Below are positions 2 to 47,999 of a stretch of 48,342 bases of DNA, piece after piece. This DNA comes from Candidatus Wildermuthbacteria bacterium RIFCSPHIGHO2_01_FULL_49_22b (lineage in GTDB: Bacteria > Patescibacteriota > Minisyncoccia > Minisyncoccales > UBA10102). The notes under the pieces are model-generated. The model searched no databases. It worked only from the letters and a program-made list of their open reading frames with translations, and was not told the origin of the DNA. Both the position numbers and the translations under genes were made by a program. The stretch's first letter is position 1. The number at the start of each line of letters is the position of its first letter. Location: positions 1 to 48,342 of the forward strand of contig MHTT01000008.1 in the NCBI GenBank assembly GCA_001823165.1. The letters are read 5' to 3'.

Positions 2-3000
2 ACTTCAGCTGCTGTGGAACGAATGAGAATAGATAGCTCTGGCAAGGTCGGCATCGGCACTGCCACCCCGGGAGCCCTGCTCTCTGTTGCCACAGACGGT
101 GCCAACGACGCCTTCCGCATCGGAGACAATGGCGCCGGGAACATTCTTACCGTGCAGAACGGAGGCAACGTCGGCATCGGGACGGCGAGTCCGGGAACGA
201 AGCTAGAAGTAAACTTAGGGGGAGTTAGTATAACTGCTATTCGAGCCTTAAGTGGCGGTGTTAATAATTATACTGCTATAGGTATTGGAAGAACATCACT
301 AGAGGGAGCCCTCGCGATTGCAGCTGGGGCCGGACAATGGTCCAGCTTTGCCACTACTGGAGATATTATTCTGCGGTCTGACACGGAAGATTTAATTTTA
401 GGTGCCAGAAATGCTACCGGATCTCTTCGTTTTGCGACTGGCTTTCCTGATACAGAGAAAATGACAATTTTATCTGGCGGCAACGTCGGCATCGGCGACA
501 CCACCCCGGACGCTCTCTTGGAGATTGTGTCTTCCGGAGGCAAGAACCTTTTTGCCCTTACCGATACCACAGACGGAGATGTGTTTATGGTGAACAACGC
601 CGGCAGGGTGGGCATCGGAGATACCACCCCGGACGCGGCACTAGAGATTGTAACCTCCGGCACCACAGACGCGTTCCATATCTCTTCTACAGCCGCCAGA
701 GACGGAGACCTTTTTACCATTACCGCTTTAGGAAACGTGGGCATCGGGACGGCAAGCCCCGGAGTGGCTCTTGAGCTTGGAGCCGACAAATCATTCCGCA
801 TTACGGGGGGAACGGCTTTCCCCGCCTCGCCGTCTGAAGGGCAGATGTTTTTTAGAACCGACACAACCCAGCTCTATGTGTACGCCAACGCAAAATGGCA
901 GGCGGACCGGACTACGGCAACCAAGATAGTGGCTGCCAGCGACTCCAGCAACGAAGAGAAAGCCGACTATGTGGCAGACGGCACCAACGACGAGGTAACG
1001 ATTGAGGCCGCCCTAGCCGCCCTTCCGGCTGGAGGAGGCATGGTGTTTCTTTTGGAAGGAACCTACAGCATTGGGGCCGCCATAGACATAACTCAATCAA
1101 AGGTGTCGCTTGTCGGTTCAGGAAAGGCAACCATACTGCAAAGGGCCGCAAATGCCATTGACGTTATCGTGGTGGGAAACGCGGGAACCGCGTATGAGAG
1201 AGTGATTATCTCCAACCTTCAGATAGACGGAGCAAAAGCTACCCATACGAGCGGCGCGAACGATGGAATAGTTTTTAACCAGAAAATCACCAATTCAGAG
1301 ATTCTAGATACCTGGATTCACGACAATGCGGGCTCTGGCATTTATCTCTTAAGCGGCGGGACCAGCGGCACTGCCAATAACGATAATGTTGTAAGAGGCA
1401 ACAAAATTTTGTCCAACGGCGGTTATGGTCTCGTGATAGCAACTTATGGCTCCAGAAACCGCATAGAGAACAACGATATTAGCTCCAACACGAACAGCGG
1501 AATTCTTTTTTCAACCGGCGCCTATAACAATATGGCCATTGGAAATAGAATTGCCTCAAATTCCTCAAATGGAATAGAAATTGGCAGGGGAGAGGACAAC
1601 ATGATTGCGAATAATTATATTAACTCAAATACGGGAGACGGAGTGAGAATCGCAGGCGACGGCAACGACACGGCTATCATCGGCAACTATATAGAGTTAA
1701 ATACGGGCGACGCAATAGACACAACAACAGGAACCCAGGCGAGCGAACGGCACAGCATTGTATCAAACCTTATCATTGACGATATTACGCTGGGCGGCAC
1801 GGGAATACACTTGGTCTCTTCCAACCGCGTGACAGGCAATATCACCATAAACGCCAGCTCTAATGATAATTATCTTGCGGGCAACACGATTAGCGGAACA
1901 ATCACCGACAACGGCTCAAACAACGTCATTCAGCACAGCAGCCAGTTCAAAATAGAATCCACCTCTGCCACCGTGGTGCCCCTCACCATTACAGCCGATT
2001 CTCTCGCCGCGGCAAACGGCATTGCCCTTTCCGTTGACGGCCTAACCACAGGCACCGGCCTTGATATTTCTTCTACCTCTACTGCGGGAGGAGCTTCTGG
2101 CGTTTCCAAACTGATTAACCTCTCTCGGTCGGGAACCAATGCCAACGCCTCCCACACCGCCTACGGCCTGTACTCCGCGGTAACCAACACAGGGACAACC
2201 TCTACGAATATCGCGGGATATTTCTCTGCCTCCGGCGCCACAAACAACTACGCTGGTATATTTGAGAACGGAAGCGTTGGCATAGGGGATACTACCCCGG
2301 ACGCTCTCTTGGAGATTGTGTCTTCCGGAGGCAAGAACCTTTTTGCCCTTACCGATACCACAGACGGAGATGTGTTTATGGTGAACAACGCCGGCAGGGT
2401 GGGCATCGGAGATACCACCCCGGACGCTACCCTAGAGGTTGTGACGATAGGCACCACAGACGCGTTCCATATCTCTTCTACGGCCGCCGGAGACGGAGAC
2501 CTGCTTACGGTCACTGCCTTAGGAAACGTGGGCATCGGGGCGGCGAGTCCGGGAAGCAAGCTTACCATTGGAAGCGGCTCCTTTGATCTTAGCAGTCAGG
2601 GTTCCATACTTAACGTCGGCAACTCCGGCAGCGACCTTACTGACGGGGTATGGTCTGTCGCGCGCAGCAACAACCAGGCGCAGTTCAGCGTACAAACCTT
2701 TGACGACGCCGGCAACACGCCTCCTGTGCTGAATCTTGCAAGCGCCTTGAGCGACACCATAGGCACCTACACGGCGGTCACCAATACGACAGTGCTTGGC
2801 AGAATTGACTTTCAAGGAGCAGACGGCACCGGTTTTGGCACGGGAACGCGCATTGAAGGCGTTGCCACCGAGACATTCAGCGGTTCCGCCACCGGGGCCT
2901 ACCTTAGTTTCTACACTACCGATACCGGCACCAACACAAAAGACGAGCGCCTGCGCATTGACCAGGATGGGGGCATTTTCATGTATGCCATGGCCGACAA

Positions 3001-4312
3001 CTTAGTTGAAGACGGGGCAGTATGCATTTCGGGCGATGAGCTTTCAGATGAATCAGACGGCCTGTGCGATGCCTCGTCCATAAAGGTCAAGACCGATGTT
3101 CGGGACCTGGACTACGGCATTGCAGAGTTAATGCAGCTTCGTCCGGTGTTCTTCCGCTACAAGGAGGACTTCAAGCCGGACTTTCAGGCAGTGCGGGCCG
3201 GATTCATTGCCGAAGAAATGAACCTGGTTATACCCGAAGTTGTAACGTACGACAGCTACGATGAACACGGAATTCCCAACGGAGATCCTGACGGCATTGA
3301 CTACGGCAAACTGACCGCAGTGCTCACAAAAGCAATGCAGGAACAGCAAAAGCAGATTGAAGAACTGGAGCAATCGCTTCTGACTGTCGCTCAAAACATC
3401 TCTGGCGAACTGGTGAATGTGGACCCGGAATACTTCAGGCAGGGGCTTTCTTCCCTGGGTCTTGCGGTGAACACCAACGGAGTGCTGGAGGTAGACACTC
3501 TCAAAGCAAAAAAGGCGGTATTGGACACCCTTGAGTTAAAAGACCAGCTTACCGGAAAAGTATGGTGCACCTGGATTGAAAACGGAGAATGGCAAAAGGT
3601 GGAAGCAAACTGCGAGCAGATTTCGTACCTGAACGGCCAGCTTGTGATAAACGGGCAGCCCGCGGACTATGACGCCATTGCCGCGGCCAATGGCCTGGTT
3701 TTAGAGCCCCAGCCAGAGGAGCCCGCCCCTGATTCCCTTACCGACACGGTCTCTGATTCCATCTTTGACTCCACTCCCCCCATTATCTCCTTGCTCGGAC
3801 CAAGTTTGCTGGAGATTGAGCTGAACGCAGAATATGTGGATGCCGGAGCTACCGCGACAGATGACGTTGACGGCGACATTTCAGCAAACATTGCAGTAGA
3901 CAACCCAGTGGATACTTCCGTCCTTGGTGCTTATTTCGTCACCTACACTGTGTCTGATGCCGCGGGAAACAAGGCAACGCCAGCGACCCGTACCGTGAAC
4001 GTTGTAGAAGCGCTCTCTGCTCCAGAACCAGCTCTGGAACCAGAGCCAGAACCCCAGGACAGCATGCCTCCGGTCATCACTCTTCTTGGCGAAGCTGTGG
4101 TGGAGCTTGAAGTCGGTGGAATATACGAAGACGCTGGAGCCACCGCGGCAGACGATGTGGACGGAGACATCACTGCAAACATTATTGTCAGCAACCCCGT
4201 AGATACCGCTACTGTTGGCGCCTACACCGTTACCTATATCGTTTCTGACGCGGCCGGTAACGAGGCTGCCCCAGCCGCCCGCACCGTCAATGTCGTACTA
4301 AATCCGATTTAG
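2..4312 (+). CDS. Giant surface/tail-fibre-like protein, 5' partial (frame open to the window edge). Contains GNVGIGT..P repeat modules, a right-handed beta-helix (NosD/pectate-lyase-like) region, an internal peptidase-S74-like intramolecular chaperone domain, a coiled coil and two C-terminal DUF5011/Ig-like repeats.
   Basis: 1432-aa ORF with no stop back to nt 2. Recurrent GNVGIGTASPG/GRVGIGDTTPDA motifs. N/G/I-rich ~22-aa repeats (NNDISSNTNSGI, GNRIASNSSNGIEI, NNYINSNTGDGVRI) typical of parallel beta-helix. DLDYGIAELMQLRPVFFRYKED...GFIAEEMNLVIPEVV...IDYGKLTAVLTKAMQEQQKQIEELE matches the S74 chaperone-of-endosialidase pattern. Two PP(I/V)I(S/T)LLG...YxDAGATAxDDVDGDIxANI...GAYxVTYxVSDAAGN units match the DUF5011 pattern. 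Confidence 0.85.
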   Translation, partial: TSAAVERMRIDSSGKVGIGTATPGALLSVATDGANDAFRIGDNGAGNILTVQNGGNVGIGTASPGTKLEVNLGGVSITAIRALSGGVNNYTAIGIGRTSLEGALAIAAGAGQWSSFATTGDIILRSDTEDLILGARNATGSLRFATGFPDTEKMTILSGGNVGIGDTTPDALLEIVSSGGKNLFALTDTTDGDVFMVNNAGRVGIGDTTPDAALEIVTSGTTDAFHISSTAARDGDLFTITALGNVGIGTASPGVALELGADKSFRITGGTAFPASPSEGQMFFRTDTTQLYVYANAKWQADRTTATKIVAASDSSNEEKADYVADGTNDEVTIEAALAALPAGGGMVFLLEGTYSIGAAIDITQSKVSLVGSGKATILQRAANAIDVIVVGNAGTAYERVIISNLQIDGAKATHTSGANDGIVFNQKITNSEILDTWIHDNAGSGIYLLSGGTSGTANNDNVVRGNKILSNGGYGLVIATYGSRNRIENNDISSNTNSGILFSTGAYNNMAIGNRIASNSSNGIEIGRGEDNMIANNYINSNTGDGVRIAGDGNDTAIIGNYIELNTGDAIDTTTGTQASERHSIVSNLIIDDITLGGTGIHLVSSNRVTGNITINASSNDNYLAGNTISGTITDNGSNNVIQHSSQFKIESTSATVVPLTITADSLAAANGIALSVDGLTTGTGLDISSTSTAGGASGVSKLINLSRSGTNANASHTAYGLYSAVTNTGTTSTNIAGYFSASGATNNYAGIFENGSVGIGDTTPDALLEIVSSGGKNLFALTDTTDGDVFMVNNAGRVGIGDTTPDATLEVVTIGTTDAFHISSTAAGDGDLLTVTALGNVGIGAASPGSKLTIGSGSFDLSSQGSILNVGNSGSDLTDGVWSVARSNNQAQFSVQTFDDAGNTPPVLNLASALSDTIGTYTAVTNTTVLGRIDFQGADGTGFGTGTRIEGVATETFSGSATGAYLSFYTTDTGTNTKDERLRIDQDGGIFMYAMADNLVEDGAVCISGDELSDESDGLCDASSIKVKTDVRDLDYGIAELMQLRPVFFRYKEDFKPDFQAVRAGFIAEEMNLVIPEVVTYDSYDEHGIPNGDPDGIDYGKLTAVLTKAMQEQQKQIEELEQSLLTVAQNISGELVNVDPEYFRQGLSSLGLAVNTNGVLEVDTLKAKKAVLDTLELKDQLTGKVWCTWIENGEWQKVEANCEQISYLNGQLVINGQPADYDAIAAANGLVLEPQPEEPAPDSLTDTVSDSIFDSTPPIISLLGPSLLEIELNAEYVDAGATATDDVDGDISANIAVDNPVDTSVLGAYFVTYTVSDAAGNKATPATRTVNVVEALSAPEPALEPEPEPQDSMPPVITLLGEAVVELEVGGIYEDAGATAADDVDGDITANIIVSNPVDTATVGAYTVTYIVSDAAGNEAAPAARTVNVVLNPI
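500..765 (+). repeat. Intragenic direct repeat, copy 1 (~265 bp) inside the giant surface protein gene
   Basis: accccggacgctctcttggagattgtgtcttccggaggcaagaacc... recurs at offset +1791. About the first 130 nt are identical by eye and the rest is diverged. Confidence 0.9.
2291..2556 (+). repeat. Intragenic direct repeat, copy 2
   Basis: Same sequence as 500-765. It encodes the duplicated module TTPDALLEIVSSGGKNLFALTDTTDGDVFMVNNAGRVGIGDTTPDA. Confidence 0.9.
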
Positions 4313-4338
4313 CTATCCCCACCTAAATCGGATTTAGG
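4298..4338. repeat. REP-like palindrome doublet (family C) immediately upstream of the RayT-like gene
   Basis: ctaaatCCGatttag (4298-4312) and cctaaatCGGatttagg (4322-4338). Each is a 7-bp-arm perfect palindrome, and the two differ only in the central base (opposite orientations). The first copy contains the TAG stop and the last codons (LNPI*) of the giant protein. Confidence 0.85.
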
Positions 4339-4382
4339 ATATAGGGGAAACAGAGTCAGTAGATTAGAATATAATATAAAGC

Positions 4383-5099
4383 ATGCCAAGAACAAAACCA
4401 GAAAAGGGAAAAATCTACCATATTTTCAACCGTGGCGTAGAAAAGCGGAACATCTTTATATCCGAAGGAGATCGCTGGAGATTTTTGCAGGGGATGTATT
4501 TGTTTAATAATGAAGATTCCACCACAAATCTTCTCTATCGTCTTGAGCAAAGAAAGGGCAAGATGCATTTTGGCATCCTGCGAGATTATATGCAGCGAGA
4601 AGGCGTTAAGCGCAAGCCCTTGGTACGCATTATGGCAGATTGCCTTAAGCATAATCACTTTCATTTTAGCATTGAAGAAACTCAAGAAAACGGCATTTCC
4701 CGTTTTATGCAAAAGCTGGGTATTGGATATACAAAATATTTTAATAAAAAATATGAGCGCGTAGGACCGCTGTTTCAAGGAAAGTTTAAACTGGTAGAGA
4801 TACAAAGCGATGCGCAGCTTATGTATCTTATTGCCTATATTAATGCGATTAACCCCGGCCAAGAGTTAGAGCCAGAACTAAAATCAGTAGCGCAAGATCC
4901 AGAGCAAATCCTTGAGTTTATTCAACATTACCCATGGAGTACTCATTTGGAGTATTTGGGCAAAAGAGATTCTATTATTATAGATAAAGGTGTTGCGGGA
5001 GAATTATTTGGTACCCCAATTGCTTACCGAAAGTTTGTAGAAGATATTGTAAAAGGCAAAAAAAGTTTTGGTTTGTCAAAGAAAGATTTTCTTGAGTAG
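4383..5099 (+). CDS. IS200/IS605-like Y1 (HUH) transposase of the REP-associated RayT type (COG1943-like)
   Basis: YHIFNRGVEKRNIF N-terminus. HUH motif in CLKHNHFHFSI. GPLFQGKFK and the LIAYINAINP Tyr helix. HYPWSTHLEY tail. Flanked on both sides by the same palindrome doublets. Confidence 0.8.
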   Translation: MPRTKPEKGKIYHIFNRGVEKRNIFISEGDRWRFLQGMYLFNNEDSTTNLLYRLEQRKGKMHFGILRDYMQREGVKRKPLVRIMADCLKHNHFHFSIEETQENGISRFMQKLGIGYTKYFNKKYERVGPLFQGKFKLVEIQSDAQLMYLIAYINAINPGQELEPELKSVAQDPEQILEFIQHYPWSTHLEYLGKRDSIIIDKGVAGELFGTPIAYRKFVEDIVKGKKSFGLSKKDFLE

Positions 5100-5101
5100 T
5101 T

Positions 5102-5138
5102 CCTAAATCCGATTTAGTTTTACTAAATCGGATTTAGG
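5102..5138. repeat. REP-like palindrome doublet (family C) immediately downstream of the RayT-like gene
   Basis: cctaaatCCGatttag (5102-5117) and ctaaatCGGatttagg (5123-5138), in the same CCG-then-CGG order as the upstream doublet. Confidence 0.85.
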
Positions 5139-5153
5139 AGAATTAGGAGAATT

Positions 5154-5969
5154 ATGAGAGAAATTTTAGAAAAAGTAAAAAATGGGGTGCTGGACGCGGT
5201 ATTTCCGGCAACCTGCATGGGTTGCGGTAGAGAAGGAAAGTATATCTGCCAAAGGTGCGAAGGTTTTGTAAGCGAAGTTGCTTTCATCTGCCCAGTATGT
5301 GAACAGTCGAGTTTTGCCGGAGAGCGGCACCAAACCTGCAAATCGTTCTATGGTTTTGATGGTTTGGTAAGCATTTGGGAATACGAGGGGCTCATGAAGA
5401 GTTTACTGCATTATATAAAGTACAATGGCATTACCCATGCTGCCAAAGAAACCACGGAGCGCGCATTTGAGGTGATTGGGCGCGACAGAGAACGATTTGG
5501 CGCATTTTTATCTTTTTTGTTATCTCAAGATACTTTTGTGACGTATGTGCCCATGTTCAAGAAAAAAGAGAGAAAAAGAGGGTTTAACCAGGCGGAGATA
5601 CTTGCAAGAGAGCTTGGAAAAATAGCCGGGAAAGAAACTCTTTGCGCCTTAGAGAAGATACATGATACAAAACCGCAGGTTGAGCTGAAGAAAGAAGAAC
5701 GGCTGGTAATCGTACAAGGCGCCTTTCAGACAACATTGCCCGCCTTTGCCGACCTGCCTGCTGGCAAGGTGGGGGCTTTGGCGGGCAGGCAAATTACAAA
5801 TCCAGACAATCAATTATCAATGGTCAATCATCAATGGTCGGCACCGCAGAAAGTGGTGCTGGTAGATGACGTGTGGACCACAGGAGCTACCATGAAAGAA
5901 TGCTGCAGGGTTTTGAAAAGGGCTGGCGCCAAAGAAATATGGGGGCTTACTATCGCAAGAACCCCCTAA
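5154..5969 (+). CDS. comF: ComF-family protein (phosphoribosyltransferase-like competence protein) carrying a ~30-40 aa extra segment
   Basis: N-terminal CxxC...CxxC zinc finger. RGFNQAE, VQGAF and VVLVDDVWTTGAT PRTase motifs. SD aggaga lies 5 nt upstream of the ATG. Confidence 0.85.
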   Translation: MREILEKVKNGVLDAVFPATCMGCGREGKYICQRCEGFVSEVAFICPVCEQSSFAGERHQTCKSFYGFDGLVSIWEYEGLMKSLLHYIKYNGITHAAKETTERAFEVIGRDRERFGAFLSFLLSQDTFVTYVPMFKKKERKRGFNQAEILARELGKIAGKETLCALEKIHDTKPQVELKKEERLVIVQGAFQTTLPAFADLPAGKVGALAGRQITNPDNQLSMVNHQWSAPQKVVLVDDVWTTGATMKECCRVLKRAGAKEIWGLTIARTP

Positions 5970-6040
5970 ATTTTCAATCAATGACCCAATTTCACAATTT
6001 TTCAATTGAACATTAAAACATTGATAATTCATTGAAAATT
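5967..6040. repeat. AT-rich TIR-bounded miniature element (family E), copy 1. It fills the comF-dprA spacer.
   Basis: Begins taaattttcaat (the TAA is the comF stop) and ends cattgaaaatt. aaattttcaat and attgaaaatt are reverse complements. It shares the blocks cccctaaattttcaat, caatgacc.aattt and tgataatt...cattgaaaatt with 43185-43271. Confidence 0.7.
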
Positions 6041-6046
6041 AGTGTC

Positions 6047-6952
6047 ATGGCTGACAGTATAACTAAAGAAAGTCCTCGATACCCAACACTACTCGGTGAA
6101 CTTAGGGACGCGCCAAAGCAGCTGTATTATAGGGGAAATTGGGACGGGATTTTTTCCGTCGAAGGCGGATCCGCCTCTGGCGGAGAAAAATGCCTGGCGG
6201 TTGTAGGCACGCGGAGAATGACCAGCTATGGAAAGCGCATGACCGAGCAGATCGTGGGTGAGGTTGCTGCGGCCGGGGTGACCGTTGTTTCTGGTTTTAT
6301 GTACGGTATTGATGCTGAAGCCCACAAAGCAGCTTTGAGAGCCGGCGGCAAAACCATTGCCGTAATGCCCTGCGGAATTGACGTTGTGCACCCAGAATAT
6401 CAGGCGGACTTATATCAAGAGATTTTAGATACGGGCGGCTTAGTGGTTTCAGAATACGAAGGCACGCATCCTGCTTTGTATTGGACGTTTCCACGCCGAA
6501 ATCGCATTGTAGCAGGCCTTTCAAAGGCAACGCTGGTAGTGGAGGCCGGTGAAGACAGCGGAGCATTGATTACCGCAGACCTTGCTAAAAAATACGGCAG
6601 AAAACTCTTTGCCGTGCCAAATCCTTTAACGAGCGCGGTTTCGCAAGGAGTAACGCGGTTGCTAAAAGAGGGTGCAACGATTGCAAGCAGCGCAGACGAT
6701 ATTTTGAAGTATTTTGGGTTTCGTACGCGGAGTAGGGTCAGACCCTACTCGCAAGTAGGGTCTGACCCTACTCCGCAGATTGCAGGCGAACTTGAGCAAA
6801 AGATTATGCAGGTGCTTTTCAAGGAATCAATGCAGATTGACGCGCTTGCCAGAAAACTTAAGATACCGGCAGCGCAGCTGGGAGCCGCAATTTCCATGTT
6901 GCAGTTGGAAGGATGCATAACAGAAGAACAGGGCAAATTATATGTTGTTTAA
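6047..6952 (+). CDS. dprA: DNA processing protein DprA
   Basis: LAVVGTRRMTSYGKRMT, VVSGFMYGIDAEAHKAAL, FPRRNRIVAGLS and a C-terminal winged-helix-like tail. The ORF is open from TTG 6032 but ATG 6047 is the more likely start. Confidence 0.9.
   Translation: MADSITKESPRYPTLLGELRDAPKQLYYRGNWDGIFSVEGGSASGGEKCLAVVGTRRMTSYGKRMTEQIVGEVAAAGVTVVSGFMYGIDAEAHKAALRAGGKTIAVMPCGIDVVHPEYQADLYQEILDTGGLVVSEYEGTHPALYWTFPRRNRIVAGLSKATLVVEAGEDSGALITADLAKKYGRKLFAVPNPLTSAVSQGVTRLLKEGATIASSADDILKYFGFRTRSRVRPYSQVGSDPTPQIAGELEQKIMQVLFKESMQIDALARKLKIPAAQLGAAISMLQLEGCITEEQGKLYVV
6727..6776. repeat. Family B palindromic doublet translated in frame within dprA
   Basis: gcggaGTAGGGTCaGACCCTACtcgcaaGTAGGGTCtGACCCTACtccgc. 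It is two 8-bp-arm hairpin units and the whole 50-mer is nearly self-complementary. It encodes [17 protein letters not shown] in the linker between the Rossmann and winged-helix domains. Confidence 0.85.
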
Positions 6953-8474
6953 GGTGCAATCTGCAGCAAACTCGGGACTGGAGGCACTCGGGGTGGACAT
7001 TGAAATAAGCGTTTCAAACAGGGGGTTGCCGGGTTTTGACATTGTGGGGCTTCCCGACAAGGCCGTTCAAGAAAGCAAGGAGCGGGTGAGAGCTGCCATT
7101 GGAAATTCAAAAATTGAGTTTCCTCAAAGAAAAATTACCGTAAACTTGGCGCCAGCCGATATTCCCAAAGAAGGCTCTCTGTACGACTTGCCCATAGCAG
7201 TGGGAATTATGGCCTCGGTTTTGCAATATGAGATTCCCCCAAACAGCTTATTTTTGGGAGAGCTTTCTTTAGACGGCAAGCTTCGCCACACAAAAGGGGC
7301 CGTACTTATGGCGCTTTTTGCAAAAGAACAGGGATTTCAAAATGTGTTTGTTCCAGCAGAATCCGCAAACGAGGCAGCTATTATTCAAGGCGTAAACGTG
7401 TACGGAATAAAAAACCTTACCGAAATAGCCGGACTTTTCTTGGGTAAATCTTTTTTGCGGCCCGTTGCTTACCAGAAAAAAGAAGAGCTCACTGAGGATA
7501 TAGAGTTTGACATGGCAGAAGTACTTGGCCAGGAAACCGCCAAGCGCGCCGTAGAGATAGCTGCCGCCGGCGGCCATAATATATTAATGATAGGAAGCCC
7601 TGGTTCCGGGAAAACCATGCTGGCGCGGGCCTTGCCAGGCATTTTGCCAAGGTTAAATGAAGAAGAGTCCTTGGAGGTTACGAAACTCTATTCTATTGCA
7701 GGGAGCATGCCGCCCCGGGGATCTCTTATCACCACGCGCCCTTTTCGCTCGCCCCATCACAGCGTTTCTCAAATTGGGCTGATAGGAGGCGGTCAAAAAC
7801 CGCAACCTGGAGAAATAAGCTTGGCTCACCGAGGGGTCTTGTTTTTAGACGAGTTTAACGAGTTCCCTCGGTCTGTATTAGAAGGTCTCCGCCAACCCGT
7901 AGAAGACGGCGCGCTTACCATTTCAAGAAGCAAAGAACGAGTAACCTATCCTTGCCGTTTTATGTTGGTGGCGTCTGCAAATCCTTGTCCGTGCGGATAC
8001 TTAAATCACCCAAGGAAACCCTGTGTCTGCACTCCTCGAGAGATAAAAAAGTACCGGAAGCGAGCATCCGGCCCTATTTTAGAGCGCATTGATTTGCATG
8101 TTGAAGTGCCGGAGGTTGACGTGGAAGAGTTTCGCGGCAATCAAAAGTCCACGAGCGCCGCAGAAAGCTCTTGTTCTATTCGGGAACGAATGAGCGAGGC
8201 GCGAAAAATCCAAGAAACAAGATTTGCAGAAGAGTCCATCTATACGAATGCAGAAATGAAAAACGCGCATATTAAAAAATACGCCGCACTTTCAAAAGAG
8301 GCCGAGCAGATGGTACTACGGGCTGCGCTTCAATATCAGCTTTCTGCAAGGTCATTTATGAAAATGATAAAGATCGCCCGCACCATTGCAGACCTTGCCT
8401 TTGAGCAACAGATTGGAAAAGAACACATGCTCGAGGCCTTGCAGTATCGCCCCAAGATATATGAGTTGGACTGA
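6942..8474 (+). CDS. comM: YifB/ComM-family Mg-chelatase-like AAA+ ATPase
   Basis: 510 aa. Walker A IGSPGSGKT, Walker B VLFLDEF, a Lon-protease-like N-terminal domain and ALQYRP near the C-terminus. It overlaps the dprA stop by 11 nt. Confidence 0.92.
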   Translation: MLFKVQSAANSGLEALGVDIEISVSNRGLPGFDIVGLPDKAVQESKERVRAAIGNSKIEFPQRKITVNLAPADIPKEGSLYDLPIAVGIMASVLQYEIPPNSLFLGELSLDGKLRHTKGAVLMALFAKEQGFQNVFVPAESANEAAIIQGVNVYGIKNLTEIAGLFLGKSFLRPVAYQKKEELTEDIEFDMAEVLGQETAKRAVEIAAAGGHNILMIGSPGSGKTMLARALPGILPRLNEEESLEVTKLYSIAGSMPPRGSLITTRPFRSPHHSVSQIGLIGGGQKPQPGEISLAHRGVLFLDEFNEFPRSVLEGLRQPVEDGALTISRSKERVTYPCRFMLVASANPCPCGYLNHPRKPCVCTPREIKKYRKRASGPILERIDLHVEVPEVDVEEFRGNQKSTSAAESSCSIRERMSEARKIQETRFAEESIYTNAEMKNAHIKKYAALSKEAEQMVLRAALQYQLSARSFMKMIKIARTIADLAFEQQIGKEHMLEALQYRPKIYELD

Positions 8475-8482
8475 AAAAATAT

Positions 8483-8845
8483 ATGAGAGTACACAATATG
8501 ATAGGAGAGAGAGGGGAGGAGATTGCGCGCCAGTTTTTGGAGAACAAAGGATATACAATTATTGAGTGCAATTACAGGACAAAGAGAGCAGAAATTGATA
8601 TCATTGCAAAACATAAAAATAAACTAGTGTTTGTGGAGGTGCGAACAAAGCACCGCGAACAATACGGAACCCCAGAAGAAACTATTGATTATAAAAAACG
8701 CATGAGATTGAAAAAGAATGCCGCAGCTTATGTCCATCGAAAGAAATATTATGGGCCTTTTCGCATAGACGCCGTATGTCTGGTACTAGATGAGAACGCG
8801 GGGCTCCAGCGGATTAACCACTATGAAAACATTGTGGAAAACTAG
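8483..8845 (+). CDS. yraN: YraN-family (UPF0102) putative endonuclease
   Basis: GERGEEIARQFLENKGYTIIECNYRTKRAEIDIIAK...VFVEVRT...IDAV pattern. ATG 8498 is an alternative start. Confidence 0.85.
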   Translation: MRVHNMIGERGEEIARQFLENKGYTIIECNYRTKRAEIDIIAKHKNKLVFVEVRTKHREQYGTPEETIDYKKRMRLKKNAAAYVHRKKYYGPFRIDAVCLVLDENAGLQRINHYENIVEN

Positions 8846-8905
8846 GCGAGACCAAGGATTCCTTGGTCTCGCCTAAGAGCTAAAACTAAGGAGCTCATGG
8901 GAACA
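8762..8905 (+). repeat. 144-bp direct repeat, left copy (yraN 3' end, hairpin, and start codon of the next ORF)
   Basis: Identical to 10847-10990 except one mismatch (8790 t versus 10875 c) by my alignment. Contains the 13-bp-stem hairpin ggcgagaccaagg-att-ccttggtctcgcc (8845-8873). Confidence 0.9.
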
Positions 8906-10190: not shown

Positions 10191-10257
10191 ACGAAATGAA
10201 GCTTGAGGCATTGGAGGTTTTAATGCTCACTGACCGAGTGAGGAACGAAGACACGAA

Positions 10258-10773
10258 ATGACTTCTCTCAAGAAGGGCGGGGAAAAGGAGAATAAAAATA
10301 ATCCCCAGTACCTGCCCACCGATTCAATGAAAAATAATATGAACAAGTTTATCTACAGGCCCATTAAGTTTAATCGGATAACCCAGATTTTCGGAGAGAA
10401 CAAAACAGATTACTCCAAACTTGGTATGCTCGGACATAATGGTCTTGATATGGCTACCTGGAATGGGACACCAATATATCATTCTGGTGACTATATGGGT
10501 TATATGAAGACAGAAATTGATGCAATGGGTGGCATAGGAGTAGATATCTATTCTAATACTCCCCAGATTGATGGAAAACGTATCAAATTGCGTTATTGGC
10601 ACTTAAAGCAAGTTGTAGGGTGGGATGGAAAAGAAGTGCGACCAGGACAACTTATAGGTTTTGCTGATAATACTGGATTTTCAACAGGAGACCATTTATA
10701 CTTTGATTTAAAATGTGTAGATGAGAATGACAAAACATCACGAACAATACGGAAGCCCGGAAGAAACCATTGA
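10258..10773 (+). CDS. M23/LytM-family peptidase-like protein (endolysin-like), 3' end running into the yraN-like fragment
   Basis: GHNGLDM (HxxxD) and NTGFSTGDHLYFDL. The usual HxH reads HLY, so it is possibly degenerate. The C-terminus is read out of the yraN-homologous DNA in another frame. Confidence 0.55.
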   Translation: MTSLKKGGEKENKNNPQYLPTDSMKNNMNKFIYRPIKFNRITQIFGENKTDYSKLGMLGHNGLDMATWNGTPIYHSGDYMGYMKTEIDAMGGIGVDIYSNTPQIDGKRIKLRYWHLKQVVGWDGKEVRPGQLIGFADNTGFSTGDHLYFDLKCVDENDKTSRTIRKPGRNH

Positions 10774-10930
10774 TTATGAAAAACGCATGAGACTGCAGCG
10801 AAACGCAAGAGCGTATATTCACCGAACAAAGTACCGCGGCCCATACCGCATAGACGCCGTATGTCTGGTACTAGACGAGAACGCGGGGCTCCAGCGGATT
10901 AACCACTATGAAAACATTGTGGAAAACTAG
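10722..10930 (+). pseudogene. Displaced, duplicated 3' fragment of a yraN-like gene
   Basis: It encodes ...HEQYGSPEETIDYEKRMRLQRNARAYIHRTKYRGPYRIDAVCLVLDENAGLQRINHYENIVEN, parallel to residues ~53-120 of the intact YraN. The N-terminal catalytic part is absent. Confidence 0.8.
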
Positions 10931-10990
10931 GCGAGACCAAGGATTCCTTGGTCTCGCCTAAGAGCTAAAACTAAGGAGCTCATGGGAACA
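10847..10990 (+). repeat. 144-bp direct repeat, right copy
   Basis: See 8762-8905. The hairpin copy is at 10930-10958. Confidence 0.9.
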
Positions 10991-13198
10991 TTTTTTGACT
11001 TCATTATTAGAACAAGTGTTGTCCTTTTGGTGTTCTTGGTTCCTTTAGCGTGGAGCCCCTGGACCTTTGAGGCCTTTGAGTTTTCAAAGCAGTATCTTTT
11101 GTTCTTTTTGGTTCTCTTGGGCCTGTTTGCTTGGATAGCACGCATGGTGCTGGTTGAGCGCGAGGTGCGGTTCAAGAAGACCCCGCTTACCTTCTTTGTC
11201 TTTCTGTTTGTTGCCGCCGCCCTGCTTTCTAGCTTGTTTTCAGCTGACCGCTGGTCTTCTTTGTTTGGGCACTACGGAAGTTTTTCTGACGGACTCCCAG
11301 GCATTCTTGCTTCTGCGGGGGTTTACTTTCTTGTGACCAACGCCGTGCGCCAGCCGCGTTTTCTACTCAAGCCCTTTTTCGCTTCAGCTGCTCTTGCGGT
11401 GTTCCTCGCTTACCTTTCTTTGTTTGGAGTGCTGCCCCAAGCGGGTTTTAACCCGGTAGCGGAAAATTTTGAGAGCTTTTCCGTCTTCCTTGCCTTTCTC
11501 ATTTCTCTCCTTTCCTTTTTTGTCATACGCCCCCAACAAAACCAGCTGCCGTTTGCCGGAACTATTGTTTTGCTGGTTTCCGCTTTTGGCTTACTCCTTG
11601 CGGCGCATGAATCTACGAACTGGGCCGTGGTTTTTGCGGGCCTGCTGCTGTCGCTGTTTGCAGGACTACTGCAACGTTTGTGGACAGGGGAGGCGGGAAA
11701 AATAAGGGGATTGGGGTTGCCTCTGCTGCTTTTGTTCCTGACCTTTGTTGCCTTGCTTTCCCCGGCCTGGCCGGATCTTCCCTGGGCGTTTCCCCTGGAA
11801 CCCGCGCTTTCTCAAAGAATGTCTTGGGGTATTGCCCTTGACACTGTCAGCGACAACGCTAAAAACCTGTTCTTGGGTTCGGGACCCGGCACCTTTGCCC
11901 TGGATGTTTCCCTGCACAAGCCGGTTTCTTTGAATCAAACAGACCAGTGGCAGACCCGTTTTGACCGGCCCTCCAGCTTTTTTGCAGGACTTTTTGCCAC
12001 GACAGGACTCCTTGGTTTTCTCTTGTATCTTGCGCTGCTTTGCTGGTTCTTCCTGGTTTCTCTGGCGTTCTTGAGAAAACAGGAGAGCATGCCTTTTCTT
12101 CTTGGGGCCGCGGTGCTTGCGGCAGGCCAGGTCGCGCATGACCAGATGACGGCGCTCCAGCTTTCTTTTTGGCTGTTTTTGGGGCTCTGCCAGGTTTCCT
12201 GGAAAATTCCTGCCAGGGAGACCCGCTTTTCCCTGCCAAGGACCGCCGAGTTTCAGCTTGCAGCCAGGGCCGCGCTCCTGCTGGTGTTCCTTGCCTCTGC
12301 GGCAGCTTTCTTTTTTGGGAGCCGCCTGTACGCAGCAGATATGAAGTACGCGGCTTCCGTGAAGGCCGCGCCGTATTTTCCTGCAGCGGGCATTGAACAG
12401 GGACAAGAAGCCGCAGGATTGAATCCCTGGCAGGCAGAATACAGGATTTTCCTCTCCCGGCTTCACCTGCAGCGCGCCCTGGCCGAATTGCAAAAGCCAG
12501 AAAACCTCCGCAGCAAAGAGCAAGTTTCCAAGGACGTGCAGCTTGCCATTGCATACGCGAGGGGAGGCAGTGTGGAAGACCAAAGGATCGTGGGCGCCTT
12601 GGAGCTTAGTTCAGCCAGGGTCGCCTCGTGGGAAACGCTCGGAACAGTGTACAAAAACATTGCGTCAGCTCCCGGGGCCTTGGATTGGGGTATCCGTTCT
12701 TTTGAGACAGCGATTGCCCTGGAACCCGCAAATCCCGTTCTCCACACTGAATTGGGAAAGCTGTATGTCAAAAATGAGCAGTTTGACAAGGCGCGAGAGC
12801 GCTTTCAAAAAGCGATTGAATTAAAGCCCGACTACGCGCAGGCCCGAATGCAGCTTGCCTTGATTGCGGAAAAAGAGGGGAATGCCGGCAAAGCCATTGG
12901 GCAGCTCCATGACCTCGTTGTCCGCTTTCCTCGGGATTCAGAAACCCTGTTCCAGCTGGGAAGATTGTATTATAATGAAGGGGAGGTTGCCGGGGCGATT
13001 TCCCAATTTGAACGGGTGCTTGCAGGAGCCCCCAATCATTCCAACGCCTTGTTTGCCTTGGGTCTTGCCTATGAAAGCCAGGGGAGAATCCAGGAGGCCG
13101 CGCAGAAGTTTGAAAGGGTCTTGCAGCTGAACCCCGGAAACGAGGAAGTCCGCCGAAAGTTGCAAGAGCTTGGCAGGGAAAGTATAATACGGGAATAG
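10982..13198 (+). CDS. Polytopic O-antigen-ligase-like (Wzy_C) membrane protein with C-terminal TPR repeats
   Basis: About 10-12 hydrophobic helices. LFLGSGPGTFALDVSLHKP motif. The C-terminal third has TPR-like repeats (AIALEPANPVLHTELGKLY, AIELKPDYAQARMQLA, VLQLNPGNEEVRRKL). Confidence 0.8.
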   Translation: MGTFFDFIIRTSVVLLVFLVPLAWSPWTFEAFEFSKQYLLFFLVLLGLFAWIARMVLVEREVRFKKTPLTFFVFLFVAAALLSSLFSADRWSSLFGHYGSFSDGLPGILASAGVYFLVTNAVRQPRFLLKPFFASAALAVFLAYLSLFGVLPQAGFNPVAENFESFSVFLAFLISLLSFFVIRPQQNQLPFAGTIVLLVSAFGLLLAAHESTNWAVVFAGLLLSLFAGLLQRLWTGEAGKIRGLGLPLLLLFLTFVALLSPAWPDLPWAFPLEPALSQRMSWGIALDTVSDNAKNLFLGSGPGTFALDVSLHKPVSLNQTDQWQTRFDRPSSFFAGLFATTGLLGFLLYLALLCWFFLVSLAFLRKQESMPFLLGAAVLAAGQVAHDQMTALQLSFWLFLGLCQVSWKIPARETRFSLPRTAEFQLAARAALLLVFLASAAAFFFGSRLYAADMKYAASVKAAPYFPAAGIEQGQEAAGLNPWQAEYRIFLSRLHLQRALAELQKPENLRSKEQVSKDVQLAIAYARGGSVEDQRIVGALELSSARVASWETLGTVYKNIASAPGALDWGIRSFETAIALEPANPVLHTELGKLYVKNEQFDKARERFQKAIELKPDYAQARMQLALIAEKEGNAGKAIGQLHDLVVRFPRDSETLFQLGRLYYNEGEVAGAISQFERVLAGAPNHSNALFALGLAYESQGRIQEAAQKFERVLQLNPGNEEVRRKLQELGRESIIRE

Positions 13199-15562: not shown

Positions 15563-15586
15563 ATGTGTGAAACCTGGTTTCACACA
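15563..15586. repeat. Family D palindrome, copy 1, 11 nt after the stop of the TPR protein
   Basis: atgtgtgaaacctggtttcacaca is identical to 42247-42270. The arms tgtgtgaaacc/ggtttcacaca are perfect reverse complements. Confidence 0.9.
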
Positions 15587-15629
15587 ACTTGTTGAAAACG
15601 TGGGGAAAAGCCCGGTTTGACATGAGGGC

Positions 15630-18997: not shown

Positions 18998-19085
18998 GAA
19001 ATCCTAAATCCGATTTAGAGAAATCCTAGATTTAGTAAGAAATCCTAAATCCGATTTAGTAAGAAATCCTAAATCCGATTTAGAA
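18988..19085 (+). repeat. Tandem array of family C REP-like palindromes in the rpoB-rpoC spacer
   Basis: cctaaatccgatttag at 19003-19018, 19044-19059 and 19068-19083, with a degenerate copy at 19024-19035, at ~24-nt period (aagaaatcctaaatccgatttagt). All are in the CCG orientation. The rpoB TAA stop (18995-18997) lies in a partial unit aaatcctaag. Confidence 0.85.
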
Positions 19086-19125: not shown

Positions 19126-22100
19126 ATGAGGGTAACCGATTTAGAATCCATTCGAATAAAGCTCGCCTCCCCGGACAACGTTTTGGCGTGGTCTCACGGG
19201 GAGGTTACGAAGCCCGAAACCATCAACTACCGCACCCAGCGCGCGGAAAAGGAAGGTTTGTTTGACGAGCGCATCTTTGGTCCGGAAAAGGACTATGAGT
19301 GCTATTGCGGCAAGTACCGCAAGATACGCTACAAGGGCGTGGTGTGCGACCGGTGCCAAGTGGAGGTGACCAAATCCTCGGTGCGCCGCGAGCGCATGGG
19401 CCACATCAAGCTGGCCTCGCCCTGCTCGCACATCTGGTTTCTGCGGGGGGTGCCCTCGCGCATGGGCCTTGTTTTGGATATTCCTTCTGGCGCCTTGGAG
19501 CGCGTCATCTACTTTGCCTCGTATATCATCACCAAGGTGAACGAGGAGGCAAAAGCCAAGGCCGCAGACGAGATTGAGGCGGAATTCAAGCAGAAATTCA
19601 AGAACAAGGGAGAAGAAGAAAAGCAGCAGCTCAAGGGAGCGCGCGACCGGGCCAGAGAAGAGCTCAAGCTCCTCCAGCCCTTGAAAATCCTTTCTGAAGC
19701 AGAGTATCAGAACCTTTCTTTAAAGTACGGCCAGGCCTTTGAGGCGGGAACCGGAGCTGGAACCCTAAGAAAAATATTTCAAGAAGTGGATTTAAAGAAG
19801 CTTCTCAATCAGGTAAAAAAAGACCTGGAAAAGGCGAGTTTGGTGACGAAACGAAAACTCTTGGTCAGGATGCGACTGCTGCAGGGAATGCTGGAGTCCT
19901 CTATTCGCCCCGAATGGATGTTTTTCACCCACTTGCCTGTTCTTCCTCCCGACCTGCGTCCCATGGTGCAGCTGGACGGGGGAAGGTACGCTTCCTCTGA
20001 CTTAAACGACCTGTACCGCAGGGTGATTAACCGCAACAACCGCTTAAAGTATCTGCTGGAAATTGAGGCCCCGGACGTGATTGTGCGCAACGAGAAGCGC
20101 ATGCTGCAGGAAGCCGTGGACGCCCTGATTGACAACTCTATGAGAAAAGGACAACTCACGTCAGCTACCACGGGAGGAAGGCGCCTGTTAAAGTCCCTAG
20201 CGGACATGCTCAAGGGAAAGCAGGGACGGTTCCGCCAGAACCTGCTGGGAAAGCGTGTGGACTACTCGGGGAGGTCGGTCATTGTGGTGGGTCCCACCAT
20301 GAGTTTGAAGAACGTGGGACTGCCAAAGCGCATGGCCCTGGAGCTGTTTAAGCCCTTTGTGATTCAAAAAATCCTTGAACGGGAGTTTGCCTTCAATGTC
20401 CGGGGAGCAAATCGGCTTATTGAACAGGAAACCAACGATGTATGGGCGATTTTGGAAGAGGTTGTCGCAGAAAGAATGGTGCTCTTGAACCGCGCGCCGA
20501 CTCTTCACCGCTTGGGCATCCAGGCCTTTTACCCGCAGCTCGTGGAAGGGGAGGCCATCCGCCTGCATCCTCTGGTGTGCTCCGCCTTCAACGCGGACTT
20601 TGACGGAGACCAGATGGCCGTCCATGTGCCTCTGTCCAAAGAGGCCCAGGAAGAGGCCAGAAACCTGATGCTGTCGGCAAACAATCTGTTAAAGCCCGCC
20701 ACGGGAATCCCGGTGGCCGGTCCCCGCCAGGATATGGTGCTCGGCTGCTATTACTTGACCGGCGCAGACAAAAAACCGCAGGAACAAAAGAAGAGTTTTT
20801 CGTCTCCGCAGGAGGTCCTGCTTGCCATGGAAGCCGGGGCTGTCGGGTTGCGGGACGCCATACGGGTGCGTATGCCAAAGACCTGGGGAGGGGACGGTAT
20901 TTCTCTTGCGGAAACCACGCCAGGCCGCCTCATTTTCAACGAGTCCTTGCCTTCCGGGTTCCCGTTTGTCAACGAACAGATTACCGCAAAAAGAATGGAA
21001 CGCCTGGTGGCGGATATTATTAAGCATTATCCTGCCGAGGAGGCCCCCGGCATGTTAGACAAAATCAAGGAGCTGGGATTTGAATATGCGACCAAGTCCG
21101 GAATCACTTGGGGCATGGATGATCTGACGGTCCCGGAAGAAAAGAAAGAGCTGCTGGGGCAAGCTGCGCAAGAGATTGAAGTCATTGATTCCCATTTTGC
21201 AAGGGGATTGCTTTCCAAGGAGGAGAGGTCGGCTAAGGTCATTGAAATCTGGCAGCGGGTGAAGTCCGCGGTGGAAAAACTCGTGCCGAAATCCCTGCCT
21301 GAAGGCGGTTCGGTCTTTTCCATTATTGACTCCGGGGCAAGGGGTTCTTGGTCCCAGCCCGTGCAGATGGCGGGCATGAAGGGCTTGGTGATTAACCCGG
21401 CAGGCCGCATTATTGAGCTGCCCGTCAAGAGTTCTTTCAAGGAAGGGTTTGACGTACTGGAGTACTTCATTTCCACGCACGGGGCAAGAAAGGGAACCGC
21501 GGACACCGCCTTGAGAACGTCCACGGCAGGGTATCTTACCCGCCGTTTGATTGACGTTGCCCATGACGTGCTGGTAACCTTGCATGACTGCAAAGACACG
21601 GCGGGCATCGTCATTACCAAGGCCGTGGCCCAAGAGCTGGGCCAGAACATTGCTTTAAAGCTTGCTGGCAGGATTTCCCTGCAGGACCTGAAAGGAATTG
21701 TGAAGAAAGGAGGGTACATTGATTGGGACAAGGCCCAGGCAATTGGAGAAGACGAGAAGGTAAAGGAGGTGTGGGTACGCTCGCCTTTGTCGTGCCGCGC
21801 GGTGCGGGGAGTGTGCCAGCTGTGCTACGGATGGGATATGGGCAGGAACAGGGAGATTGAGCTGGGAGCGGCTGTTGGCATCGTGGCGGCCCAATCCATT
21901 GGAGAGCCGGGAACGCAGCTTACCATGAGAACATTCCACACGGGAGGGGTTGCTGGAGGAGGCGACATTACCCAGGGACTTCCCCGCGTAGAGGAAATCT
22001 TTGAAGGAAGGGTTCCGAGCGGCAAGGCCGTCTTATCAGAGCTTGCAGGGAAAGTGGTTGAGATAACTCCAGAGGGCGCGGTGAAGATACAAGCAACAAT

Positions 22101-42246: not shown

Positions 42247-42270
42247 ATGTGTGAAACCTGGTTTCACACA
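42247..42270. repeat. Family D palindrome, copy 2, between the lemA stop and the htpX start
   Basis: atgtgtgaaacctggtttcacaca, identical to 15563-15586. Confidence 0.9.
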
Positions 42271-42281
42271 TCCTTGAGCTT

Positions 42282-47714: not shown

Positions 47715-47999
47715 TCCGCGGTAGCTCAGCTGGTAGAGCGGCTCGCTGTGAGTAAAGTTGCAGCTTCTTGGAGCAATCCAGGTTGAAAAACGGGGTTAAT
47801 TGCGGGAAACCTAAAGCGAAAGCCAAGGCAATCCGCAGCCAAGGGATGTAACATTTTGCCTTGCAAAATTGTACGTTCAAGGTTCAGAGACTATACGCCC
47901 CGCACCCCTTTGGGGTGATGAGATAGTCCACGCCAGTATGAAAGTATTGGGTTGCGTGTAACGAGATGGTCGTAGGTTCGAATCCTACCCGCGGAGCCA
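47715..47999 (+). tRNA. tRNA-Asn(GUU) interrupted in the anticodon loop by a group I intron. Exons are 47715-47749 and 47959-47999 (CCA encoded).
   Basis: The spliced product is UCCGCGG UA GCUC AGCUGGUA GAGC G GCUCG CUGU|UAA CGAGA UGGUC GUAGG UUCGAAU CCUAC CCGCGGA G CCA. U1-A72, G73 and overall similarity to bacterial tRNA-Asn support the call. One 27-43 mismatch. Confidence 0.85.
47750..47958 (+). ncRNA. Group I self-splicing intron (209 nt, tRNA-intron/IC3-like, no ORF)
   Basis: The canonical core elements are all present: P aattgcgggaaa (~47798), Q aatccgcagc (47830-47839), R gttcagagacta (47882-47893) and S agatagtcc (47921-47929). P1 pairs exon gcugU (47745-47749) with IGS Gcagc (47760-47764), giving a U-G wobble at the 5' splice site. 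The intron ends in G (47958). Confidence 0.88.

Follow-up and report, generated by a model that had tools for sequence, protein, structure and literature searches.

A probable REPtron-like locus in a Candidatus Wildermuthbacteria genome: a Y1 gene of the RAYT kind between its own short palindromes

What kind of element is a lone transposase-like gene that lies between two pairs of a short palindrome which also occurs elsewhere on the same contig? The question is raised by positions 4298-5138 of a 48,342-nucleotide (nt) stretch of Candidatus Wildermuthbacteria bacterium RIFCSPHIGHO2_01_FULL_49_22b (contig MHTT01000008.1, forward strand; the whole stretch is hereafter called the window), where palindrome doublets enclose an open reading frame (ORF) for a Y1 protein of 238 amino acids (aa). 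Repetitive extragenic palindromes (REPs) and their REP-associated tyrosine transposases (RAYTs) are the best-known domesticated bacterial transposase coexisting with its own population of mini-elements, and their known occurrence is, to our knowledge, nearly confined to Proteobacteria, with few other phyla represented; the concept of the REPtron is reportedly due to Ton-Hoang, Nunvar and Bertels. The term stands for a domesticated Y1 gene that has its cognate palindromes on both sides, further copies of them lying elsewhere (PMC6006769). An earlier note made from the letters of the window had proposed a REPtron-like unit at this place, and we consider this the probable explanation: a Y1 enzyme (HUH, with a single catalytic tyrosine) of the RAYT (TnpA-REP) kind, an endonuclease/transposase for single-stranded DNA, that has been domesticated, is inherited vertically and has its own cognate short palindromes. 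It is supported by the flanking of the gene on both sides, by the presence of the palindrome elsewhere without the gene and by the recurrence of the arrangement, with genome-specific palindromes, in relatives. A literature search found no description of a RAYT or REP in the candidate phyla radiation (CPR; Patescibacteria), in keeping with the earlier remark that the arrangement was uncharacterised in CPR-like genomes.

Seven exact matches to CTAAATC[C/G]GATTTAG were found at three places in the window, against 0.10 expected and a maximum of 1 in 100 shuffles. Five have a C centre (CTAAATCCGATTTAG, exact at 4298, 5103, 19004, 19045 and 19069) and two a G centre (CTAAATCGGATTTAG, the reverse complement with only the central base differing, exact at 4323 and 5123), and no credible extra copy was found in the window even with up to 3 mismatches allowed. 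One inverted doublet lies on either side of the Y1 ORF, C-centre then G-centre both times; upstream of the ORF the perfect palindromes span 15 nt (4298-4312) and 17 nt (4322-4338), and downstream both span 15 nt, with an additional C in one (5102-5117) and an additional G in the other (5123-5138). The doublets and their CCG-then-CGG order are as first described. The array between rpoB and rpoC is likewise present, its bordering ORFs being RpoB and RpoC by Pfam, and here the palindrome copies stand without a Y1 gene, with a 24-nt period, a linker (TAAGAAATC) unlike the conserved linker described below and one deleted copy (CTAGATTTAG, 19026-19035). Copies 1 and 2 of Table 1 can pair into a hairpin of 15 bp (-13.4 kcal/mol as DNA, z -6.2) and copies 3 and 4, with a TTT loop, an 18-bp hairpin at 5101-5139 (-17.8 kcal/mol, z -9.4) directly upstream of the comFC ribosome-binding site. 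Rfam gave no match at the palindromes, and all four flanking copies recur on 10 strain-level contigs, each from another sample and with an identical Y1 protein.

The ORF carries the motifs HNHFHF and AYINAINP, from which it had been called a Y1 HUH protein, and this assignment was upheld. Pfam Y1_Tnp was passed narrowly (25.4 bits against a cut-off of 23) and was matched by 28/28 aligned homologues (best E-value 2e-9), in which H92 and H94 (NHFH), Y148, Y152, N154, N157 and P158 are invariant, as are H13-x-x-NRGVE (residues 13-20) and WST, with the exceptions of Y12, K21 and S186, all being conserved in at least 90%. The family is large and of uniform length, with 4003 close homologues, many of them 70-79% identical and about 238 aa long, those named belonging to Parcubacteria, Wildermuthbacteria, Portnoybacteria and Yanofskybacteria, and 11,690 representatives match at the 50% clustering level. 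The best Foldseek match in the PDB of an AlphaFold2 model (pLDDT 85.8) was 4er8_A, in which E. coli RayT is seen in complex with a REP hairpin (E 6.5e-4, probability 1.0, TM 0.62); this structure outranked those of the IS608, ISDra2 and IS200 TnpA proteins. The sole NCBIfam family touched was REP_Tyr_transpos (26/28 members, all far below cut-off, best E-value 4.6e-7), the nearest structure and the nearest NCBIfam family both being those of a REP-associated tyrosine transposase. Alignment to E. coli RayT with hhalign placed HUH, FQ/WQ, Y-I-N and (W/F)ST in register, pairing Y152-I-N with the Y-I-N of that protein and showing a 16-residue insert after the tyrosine helix relative to it, but with a probability of 0.4 this weak alignment carries no statistical weight.

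The protein fold and the small hairpins at both ends could also belong to an autonomous insertion sequence (IS) of the IS200/IS605 type, whose left and right ends the hairpins would be and which would still be transposing whole. IS608 and ISDra2 share with the present locus the fold, the catalytic logic, the small hairpins at both gene ends and the expected dependence on single-stranded DNA, whereas here the gene is not multi-copy (one copy in the 48-kb window), has no tnpB, encodes a longer protein with an NP-type rather than a Q-type Y motif and keeps a conserved chromosomal neighbourhood. The identical protein was found on 21 contigs, with the same neighbours in 10/10 of the places listed, and its hairpins also exist without the gene. 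The Y1 protein is 58-76% identical to its relatives in this comparison, against 66-85% for ComM and 49-62% for ComFC, and is thus conserved about like ComM, a core-gene level, and above ComFC and the TPR proteins; in plasmid and phage collections the gene is nearly absent (only 7 distant plasmid matches and 1 phage match). The IS200 TnpA is a protein of about 150 aa with the motif Y[IV]ENQ (PMC6006769), unlike the 238 aa and NP-type motif found here, and a single-copy, conserved, vertically inherited profile is that of RAYTs and not of IS (PMC5581495). Judging from its conservation, the Y1 gene is under strong purifying selection.

Gene plus hairpins do occur at three positions in the comFC-dprA-comM-yraN cluster among lineages (before comFC in the main clade, between comFC and dprA in relative L144 and between comM and yraN in L146), and relative L011 holds, at 6583-6800 just upstream of its current array and intact gene, a truncated Y1 remnant (MIRKKFEQGNIYHVYNRGVEKRDVFLLL ending in a stop, the 28 N-terminal codons of a second copy), as would be expected of a transposing element. 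Decayed palindromes of other types (CTAAATTCCATTTAG, CTAAACGAGATTTAAG and CTAAATCTCATTTAAG) stand before the remnant, and together they look like a trace of repeat-family turnover; the Y1 unit has evidently moved on an evolutionary scale despite its IS-unlike profile. Because of the single copy, the conserved neighbourhood and the strong conservation we do not regard the locus as an IS, an explanation that is very improbable. The flanks are short palindromes and not long terminal inverted repeats (TIRs), but the earlier argument that the gene lacks IS-like long ends does not discriminate, as IS200/IS605 elements also end in small hairpins.

Strong evidence that the gene and its palindromes belong together came from eight fetched genomes with an orthologue 58-77% identical (L011, L013, L140, L141, L142, L143, L144/L145 and L146). 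Both Y1 flanks carry the genome's own repeated palindrome in seven of these (L013, L140, L141, L142, L143, L144 and L146), and in L011 palindromes are found on the upstream side of the gene only (Table 1). The genome-specific palindrome recurs in nearby spacers, with 7 copies in L140, 8 in L142 (where 5/8 spacers are occupied) and 9 in L143. Taking the commonest palindrome family per locus, it was tested whether both Y1 junctions fall among the occupied junctions, and the chance of this was 0.007-0.5 per locus and 4e-4 combined, which is an upper estimate of the significance as the nine genomes are related phylogenetically and the statistic overstates their independence. In L141 a 34%-identical Y1 paralogue has a hairpin of its own (GTTGAAGATAATCTTCAAC) on either side; the paralogue and its two hairpins occupy 10203-11330, where yraN is reduced to a 49-aa call, and this unit may have gone into yraN or next to it. 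A 49%-identical homologue in an unrelated context (L147) is flanked by TGTGTGAGGCCCGGCCTCACACA, and a 39%-identical homologue, also in an unrelated context (L148), has no obvious flanking hairpin. The eight relatives, the paralogue and the 49%-identical homologue strongly support, at the level of sequence comparison, a functional link between gene and repeat, and across the genomes the palindrome sequence is replaced in concert, genome by genome, with base pairing kept.

Table 1. Positions of the Y1 gene, its palindromes and neighbouring features (in the window unless a relative is named), with the flanking palindromes of the relatives.
Feature	Position	Strand	Remarks
RAYT-like Y1 HUH protein, 238 aa	4383..5099	+	H92/H94; Tyr152 (with Tyr148) in YLIAYINAINP; WST motif after it; helical C-terminal tail
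Palindrome copy 1 (CTAAAT-CCG-ATTTAG)	4298..4312	.	last four codons and TAG of 1432-aa surface-protein gene (14-4312)
Linker CTATCCCCAC, 10 nt	4313..4322	+	weak version of TTATCC(A/C)CA(G/C) conserved in relatives; loop of long hairpin
Palindrome copy 2, G centre	4323..4337	.	reverse complement of copy 1
Palindrome copy 3, C centre	5103..5117	.	begins 3 nt past Y1 stop codon
Palindrome copy 4, G centre	5123..5137	.	
rpoB-rpoC array	19004..19083	+	three intact same-orientation copies (19004, 19045, 19069) and one internally deleted
comFC	5154-5969	+	
dprA	6032-6952	+	
comM	6942-8474	+	
yraN/UPF0102	8483-8845	+	
Related module: linker-like TTTTCCACAA adjoining 36-nt GC-rich hairpin CTAGGCGAGACCAAGGATTCCTTGGTCTCGCCTAAG	8832..8877; second copy 10918-10963	-	fits DnaA-box consensus
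Stop codon inside palindrome, surface protein	4310-4312		window
Stop codon inside palindrome, truB	3895-3897		L136
Stop codon inside palindrome, yraN	4003-4005		L146
Stop codon inside palindrome, yraN	5381-5383		L142
Flanking palindrome, window			CTAAAT-CCG-ATTTAG
Flanking palindrome, L013			CTAAAC-TCG-GTTTAG
Flanking palindrome, L011			CTAAGC-CTC-GCTTAG; upstream only
Flanking palindrome, L140			CTTGCC-CTC-GGCAAG
Flanking palindrome, L141			CTTGG-CCCGA-CCAAG
Flanking palindrome, L142			CTTAAC-TTA-GTTAAG; CTTAAT-TAA-ATTAAG downstream
Flanking palindrome, L143			CTAAGC-TTA-GCTTAG
Flanking palindrome, L144			CTAAAC-TTA-GTTTAG
Flanking palindrome, L146			CTTAGC-TTA-GCTAAG

Units in these genomes are usually built of a palindrome of 15 nt, whose foot CT...AG does not vary, and after it a linker of 10 nt (TTATCCACAG, TTATCCCCAC, TTTTCCACAG or TTATTCACAG), with an array period of 25 nt; the 5' flanks of the palindromes are A-runs or the linker, and one linker can also join two different palindromes (L140 14873, L011 11612 and L143 7584). 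Covariation was scored on 17 units anchored on the linker and not on palindromy. With a structure of two small hairpins 98% of cells were paired and 8/12 pairs had changed on both sides (42 cells), the observed covariation score was reached in 0/500 shuffles, and sliding the partner by one column reduced pairing to 37-55%. A single long hairpin of the REPIN type was rejected as the conserved unit, since only 91% of cells were paired, the central pair was broken in 6/17 units and direct and heterologous doublets are common; the conserved unit is therefore taken to be the individual hairpin with its linker. The inverted doublet of contig L135 folds at -18.5 kcal/mol as DNA with the linker in the loop. 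Because the protein is highly conserved while stem positions 3-6 are free to change so long as they pair, it is apparently the structure of the stem, as single-stranded DNA or as RNA, that is recognised, and the sequence of the foot and linker.

Another alternative is that palindromes and linker are host elements, such as terminators, mRNA-end hairpins or sites for a protein such as DnaA, that are independent of the Y1 protein and fill many spacers. TTATCCACA matches the DnaA-box consensus TT[AT]TNCACA (as quoted in PMC6006769), and linkers fitting it (TTWTNCACA) were found in most genomes (L011, L013, L135, L137 and L140-L144); in 194 kb of Parcubacteria loci there were 27 consensus matches against about 15 expected from composition, 14 of the 27 being linkers adjoining palindromes, whereas the linker of the window, CTATCCCCAC, has two mismatches to the DnaA box. 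Several arrays in relatives are bounded by A-runs and T-runs, like a bidirectional terminator, but the window's own copies are without a T-run and a scan for intrinsic terminators and promoters found none at the window palindromes. That many spacers can be occupied (the 5/8 in L142) and that copies lie at gene ends, often holding the stop codon, would also suit host elements. The occupation of both Y1 flanks far above chance, the paralogues with paralogue-specific flanking hairpins and the turnover of the stem with pairing kept, which is unlike the evolution of protein operator sites, all argue against independence from the Y1 gene, and we consider the host-element explanation unlikely.

The linker has further features of its own. 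Its complement contains GTGG, a variant REP tag, 4-6 nt from the next hairpin and not at its foot. Linkers mostly point along transcription and GC skew is positive throughout the window, so the linker strand is usually the lagging-strand template, an orientation that would fit a single-strand mechanism. In the literature searched, no DnaA box tied to these transposases was found beyond a remark in PMC6006769. A DnaA-like helix-turn-helix (HTH) in the C-terminal 79 residues of the Y1 protein was tried as a reader of the DnaA-box-like linker and was unsupported: none of the 28 members matched Bac_DnaA_C or an HTH C-terminal domain (HTH_23, HTH_28) of Pfam at E up to 1, and a separate model of the region (pLDDT 71.7) had no Foldseek match. 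The related module of Table 1 has the build of linker plus hairpin, like the Y1-associated units, and sits in a direct repeat of about 80 nt (8822-8898 and 10903-10983) upstream of the ORFs at 8897 and 10982.

The overlap of palindromes with gene ends begins in the window itself, where the upstream 1432-aa ORF ends ...GTA CTA AAT CCG ATT TAG, the palindrome encoding LNPI and the stop. The product of this ORF, a surface protein, contains beta-helix domains as well as Ig-like ones, and the last Ig-like domain is complete at residue 1427, five residues before the end. The palindromes open with CTA or CTT and close with TAG or AAG, and they repeatedly supply the stop codon of a neighbouring gene. 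It had been proposed that the leftmost palindrome supplies LNPI and the stop of the surface protein and that REP insertion had remodelled the 3' end of the gene; the first part holds, and the second is plausible, what is seen being an overlap that recurs at truB in L136 and at yraN in L146 and L142.

The position of the Y1 gene suggests another alternative, that the protein works in DNA uptake or recombination with ComFC, DprA, ComM and YraN, processing single-stranded DNA, either incoming or replicating, at genome-specific hairpins, with the spread of repeats as a by-product. In 9/9 genomes with at least 58% identity (the window included) the gene stays in the comFC-dprA-comM-yraN cluster though its position shifts, short gaps to comFC suggest co-transcription, the protein is highly conserved, and palindrome doublets lie in frame in the inter-domain linker of dprA in two genomes. 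However, the 49%- and 39%-identical homologues are in unrelated contexts, local moves between repeat-filled spacers could explain the shifting position without selection, and repeat density is far below that of known uptake sequences, and this role for the protein is accordingly quite improbable. A variant that joins the linker to the neighbourhood takes the module to be a hairpin with a real DnaA box and the Y1 gene to be fixed in the Parcubacterial comFC-dprA-comM-yraN cluster, where it would mark or process single-stranded DNA at replication forks or in natural transformation, with genome-specific hairpins as the signals. We hold this to be decidedly unlikely, but if true the system would be a self-recognition or DnaA-recruiting device and not merely a selfish repeat family.

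The REPtron-like reading also predicts copies away from the gene. A metagenome scan for doublets of the exact palindrome returned 5 stretches, representing 3 further distinct loci, a count that is a lower bound as contigs known to carry doublets (e.g. L001) were missed. In L136/L139 a doublet lies between a small HMA gene and truB, with the truB stop codon inside the palindrome, and with a tetranucleotide correlation to the window of r 0.92 (within-window range 0.90-0.96) these contigs probably belong to the same genome. L135/L138, which have a perfect TTATCCACAG linker, are unlikely to be part of the window's genome (GC 43%, tetranucleotide r 0.69). A 15-mer is too short to discriminate in 596 Gb, and a scan with it of 185,579 reference genomes gave at least 119 stretches from unrelated taxa, among the matches listed all but L113 (two copies) being single chance matches. 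The matches listed include one Bacteroidaceae metagenome-assembled genome (RGIG8884) four times (L042, L059, L088 and L133) and Xenococcaceae cyanobacteria (L036, L084 and L113, the last with its two copies 1145 bp apart), and these genomes may carry a repeat of their own that contains the 15-mer. Judging from the fetched loci, copy number is probably modest, at perhaps tens per genome, with copies clustered near the gene as in Group 1 RAYTs, for which flanking 16-mers occur about 12 times per replicon (PMC5581495).

Among known systems, one close likeness is to E. coli RayT (TnpA-REP, YafM; Quentin subclass 2.2, Bertels Group 2, PDB 4ER8) and its REPtron, with which the locus shares the Y1 HUH fold, as the best structural match, and a single-copy gene between cognate palindromes, often in inverted pairs, that recur in other spacers. 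E. coli BIMEs likewise link REPs by conserved linkers, one of which binds the host protein IHF. The E. coli protein has 165 aa against 238 aa here, where one insert follows helix A and another separates the Tyr helix from the WST motif, and unlike in the E. coli REPtron the linker is a constant 10-mer fitting the DnaA-box consensus and the host belongs to the CPR. The REPINs of P. fluorescens share inverted doublets folding into long hairpins, the doublet as a common unit and a genome- and RAYT-specific family, but here direct doublets and doublets of two palindromes with the same linker are equally common.

The protein is closest to TnpA-Y1 subclass 2.1 (Bertels Group 1; TIRYT/TIRtron, Di Nocera et al. 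2013), judged by the motifs in Table 1 of PMC6006769 and not by subclass profiles: the median length of 238 aa, NH[YF]H and FQ (LFQG here) are shared (PMC6006769), as are a serine motif after the Tyr helix, low copy number and moderately repeated flanking 16-mers (PMC6006769, PMC5581495). That subclass is reported to be without REP-like sequences and to have only long TIRs with GGGGWSAS (PMC6006769), in contrast to the short flanking palindromes found here; its Y motif is Y[IV]xLNP versus YINAINP (PMC6006769), and its C-terminal Bac_DnaA_C/HTH domain is undetectable in the present protein. GGGGWSAS as the TIRYT motif was rejected for this locus, the only near match being GGGGAAAC upstream with one mismatch. 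The system probably works like a REPtron and is not a member of the classical REP-associated subclasses as defined by the curated threshold, the GT[AG]G tag and the Y motif.

Several observations weigh against calling this locus REPtron-like. The profile searches that the earlier note had suggested gave a divided result, in that Y1_Tnp was passed, at 25.4 against 23 bits, and the NCBIfam RAYT equivalog NF047646 failed, at 17.9 bits against a cut-off of 80; PDB sequence searches with the protein and with its profile found no relative. In YINAINP the NP is present but is separated from the tyrosine by four residues, versus three in the class-2 signature Y---NP. The repeats are perfect, AT-rich and 15 nt long, without the bulge or 5' GT[AG]G tag of canonical REPs, and a lone copy folds as DNA at only -1.4 kcal/mol, a barely stable hairpin. 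Beyond the flanks of the gene there is a single further palindrome locus in 43 kb of the window, and the classical REP criterion of high genome-wide copy number was judged from the 48-kb window, the fetched loci and metagenome contigs only. The relatedness of the nine genomes, which tempers the flank statistic, belongs here too, and we know of no biochemical activity for any member of this Y1 branch.

If the REPtron-like reading is right, the enzyme would bind the hairpins while the DNA is single-stranded, the + strand here being the G-rich leading strand and hence probably having the sequence of the lagging-strand template. It would recognise the hairpin from its shape, and the invariant foot and the linker from their sequence, and would cut and rejoin through Tyr152 and an HUH-bound metal, so that hairpin-plus-linker units could be copied or inserted beside existing ones and into other spacers. 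Such activity would keep a genome's copies alike and would allow a new variant to displace an old family.

Other repeats were seen in the same loci. A second palindrome family, GAGTAGGGTC[A/T]GACCCTACTC, forms doublets inside intact ORFs of the window, at 6731-6773 in dprA, in the linker that joins the DNA_processg_A domain of DprA to its winged-helix domain, and at 38125-38170 in uvrA, at about residue 632-647 of UvrA; in L143 (11507-11542) that genome's own palindrome doublet lies in the same DprA linker, and other phyla offer precedents for REPs inserted in frame in repair genes (PMC3733652). An element of about 76 nt occurs in sense orientation and in frame in three core genes (rpoC 22096-22171, where it encodes ATIDNLQLTIDKKNSRQKSKVKSQES, uvrA 36961-37036 and uvrC 34590-34663 on the minus strand) and also at 35343-35425; it is built of (ACAATTG)x4-5, about 15 nt and (GTCAAAA)x4-5, with partly complementary arms (TTGAC/GTCAA). 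A third palindrome family, TGTGTGAAACCTGGTTTCACACA, is found in two spacers (15565-15587 and 42249-42271), and its outer stem TGTGTGA...TCACACA is that of the hairpins flanking the 49%-identical Y1 homologue in L147. Rfam also gave a match to a group I intron (RF00028, 92.5 bits) downstream of rpoD, at 47740-47950 (+), around which ARAGORN found no tRNA.

The finding would place the partnership of gene and repeat known from REP and RAYT in the tiny-genome bacteria of the CPR, for which it is new, as it is for the long, subclass-2.1-like Y1 branch, reported in two surveys as devoid of REPs. The build of the repeat is unusually plain and easy to read, a hairpin of 15 nt whose stem is free in sequence joined to a constant linker of 10 nt, and its natural variants are a ready mutational series on what a Y1 enzyme recognises. 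The match of the linker to a DnaA box and the fixed place of the gene among genes for DNA uptake and recombination offer leads on why hosts retain such enzymes, and the repeats, by supplying stop codons and in-frame insertions in core genes (dprA and uvrA), are of relevance to the annotation of CPR genomes.

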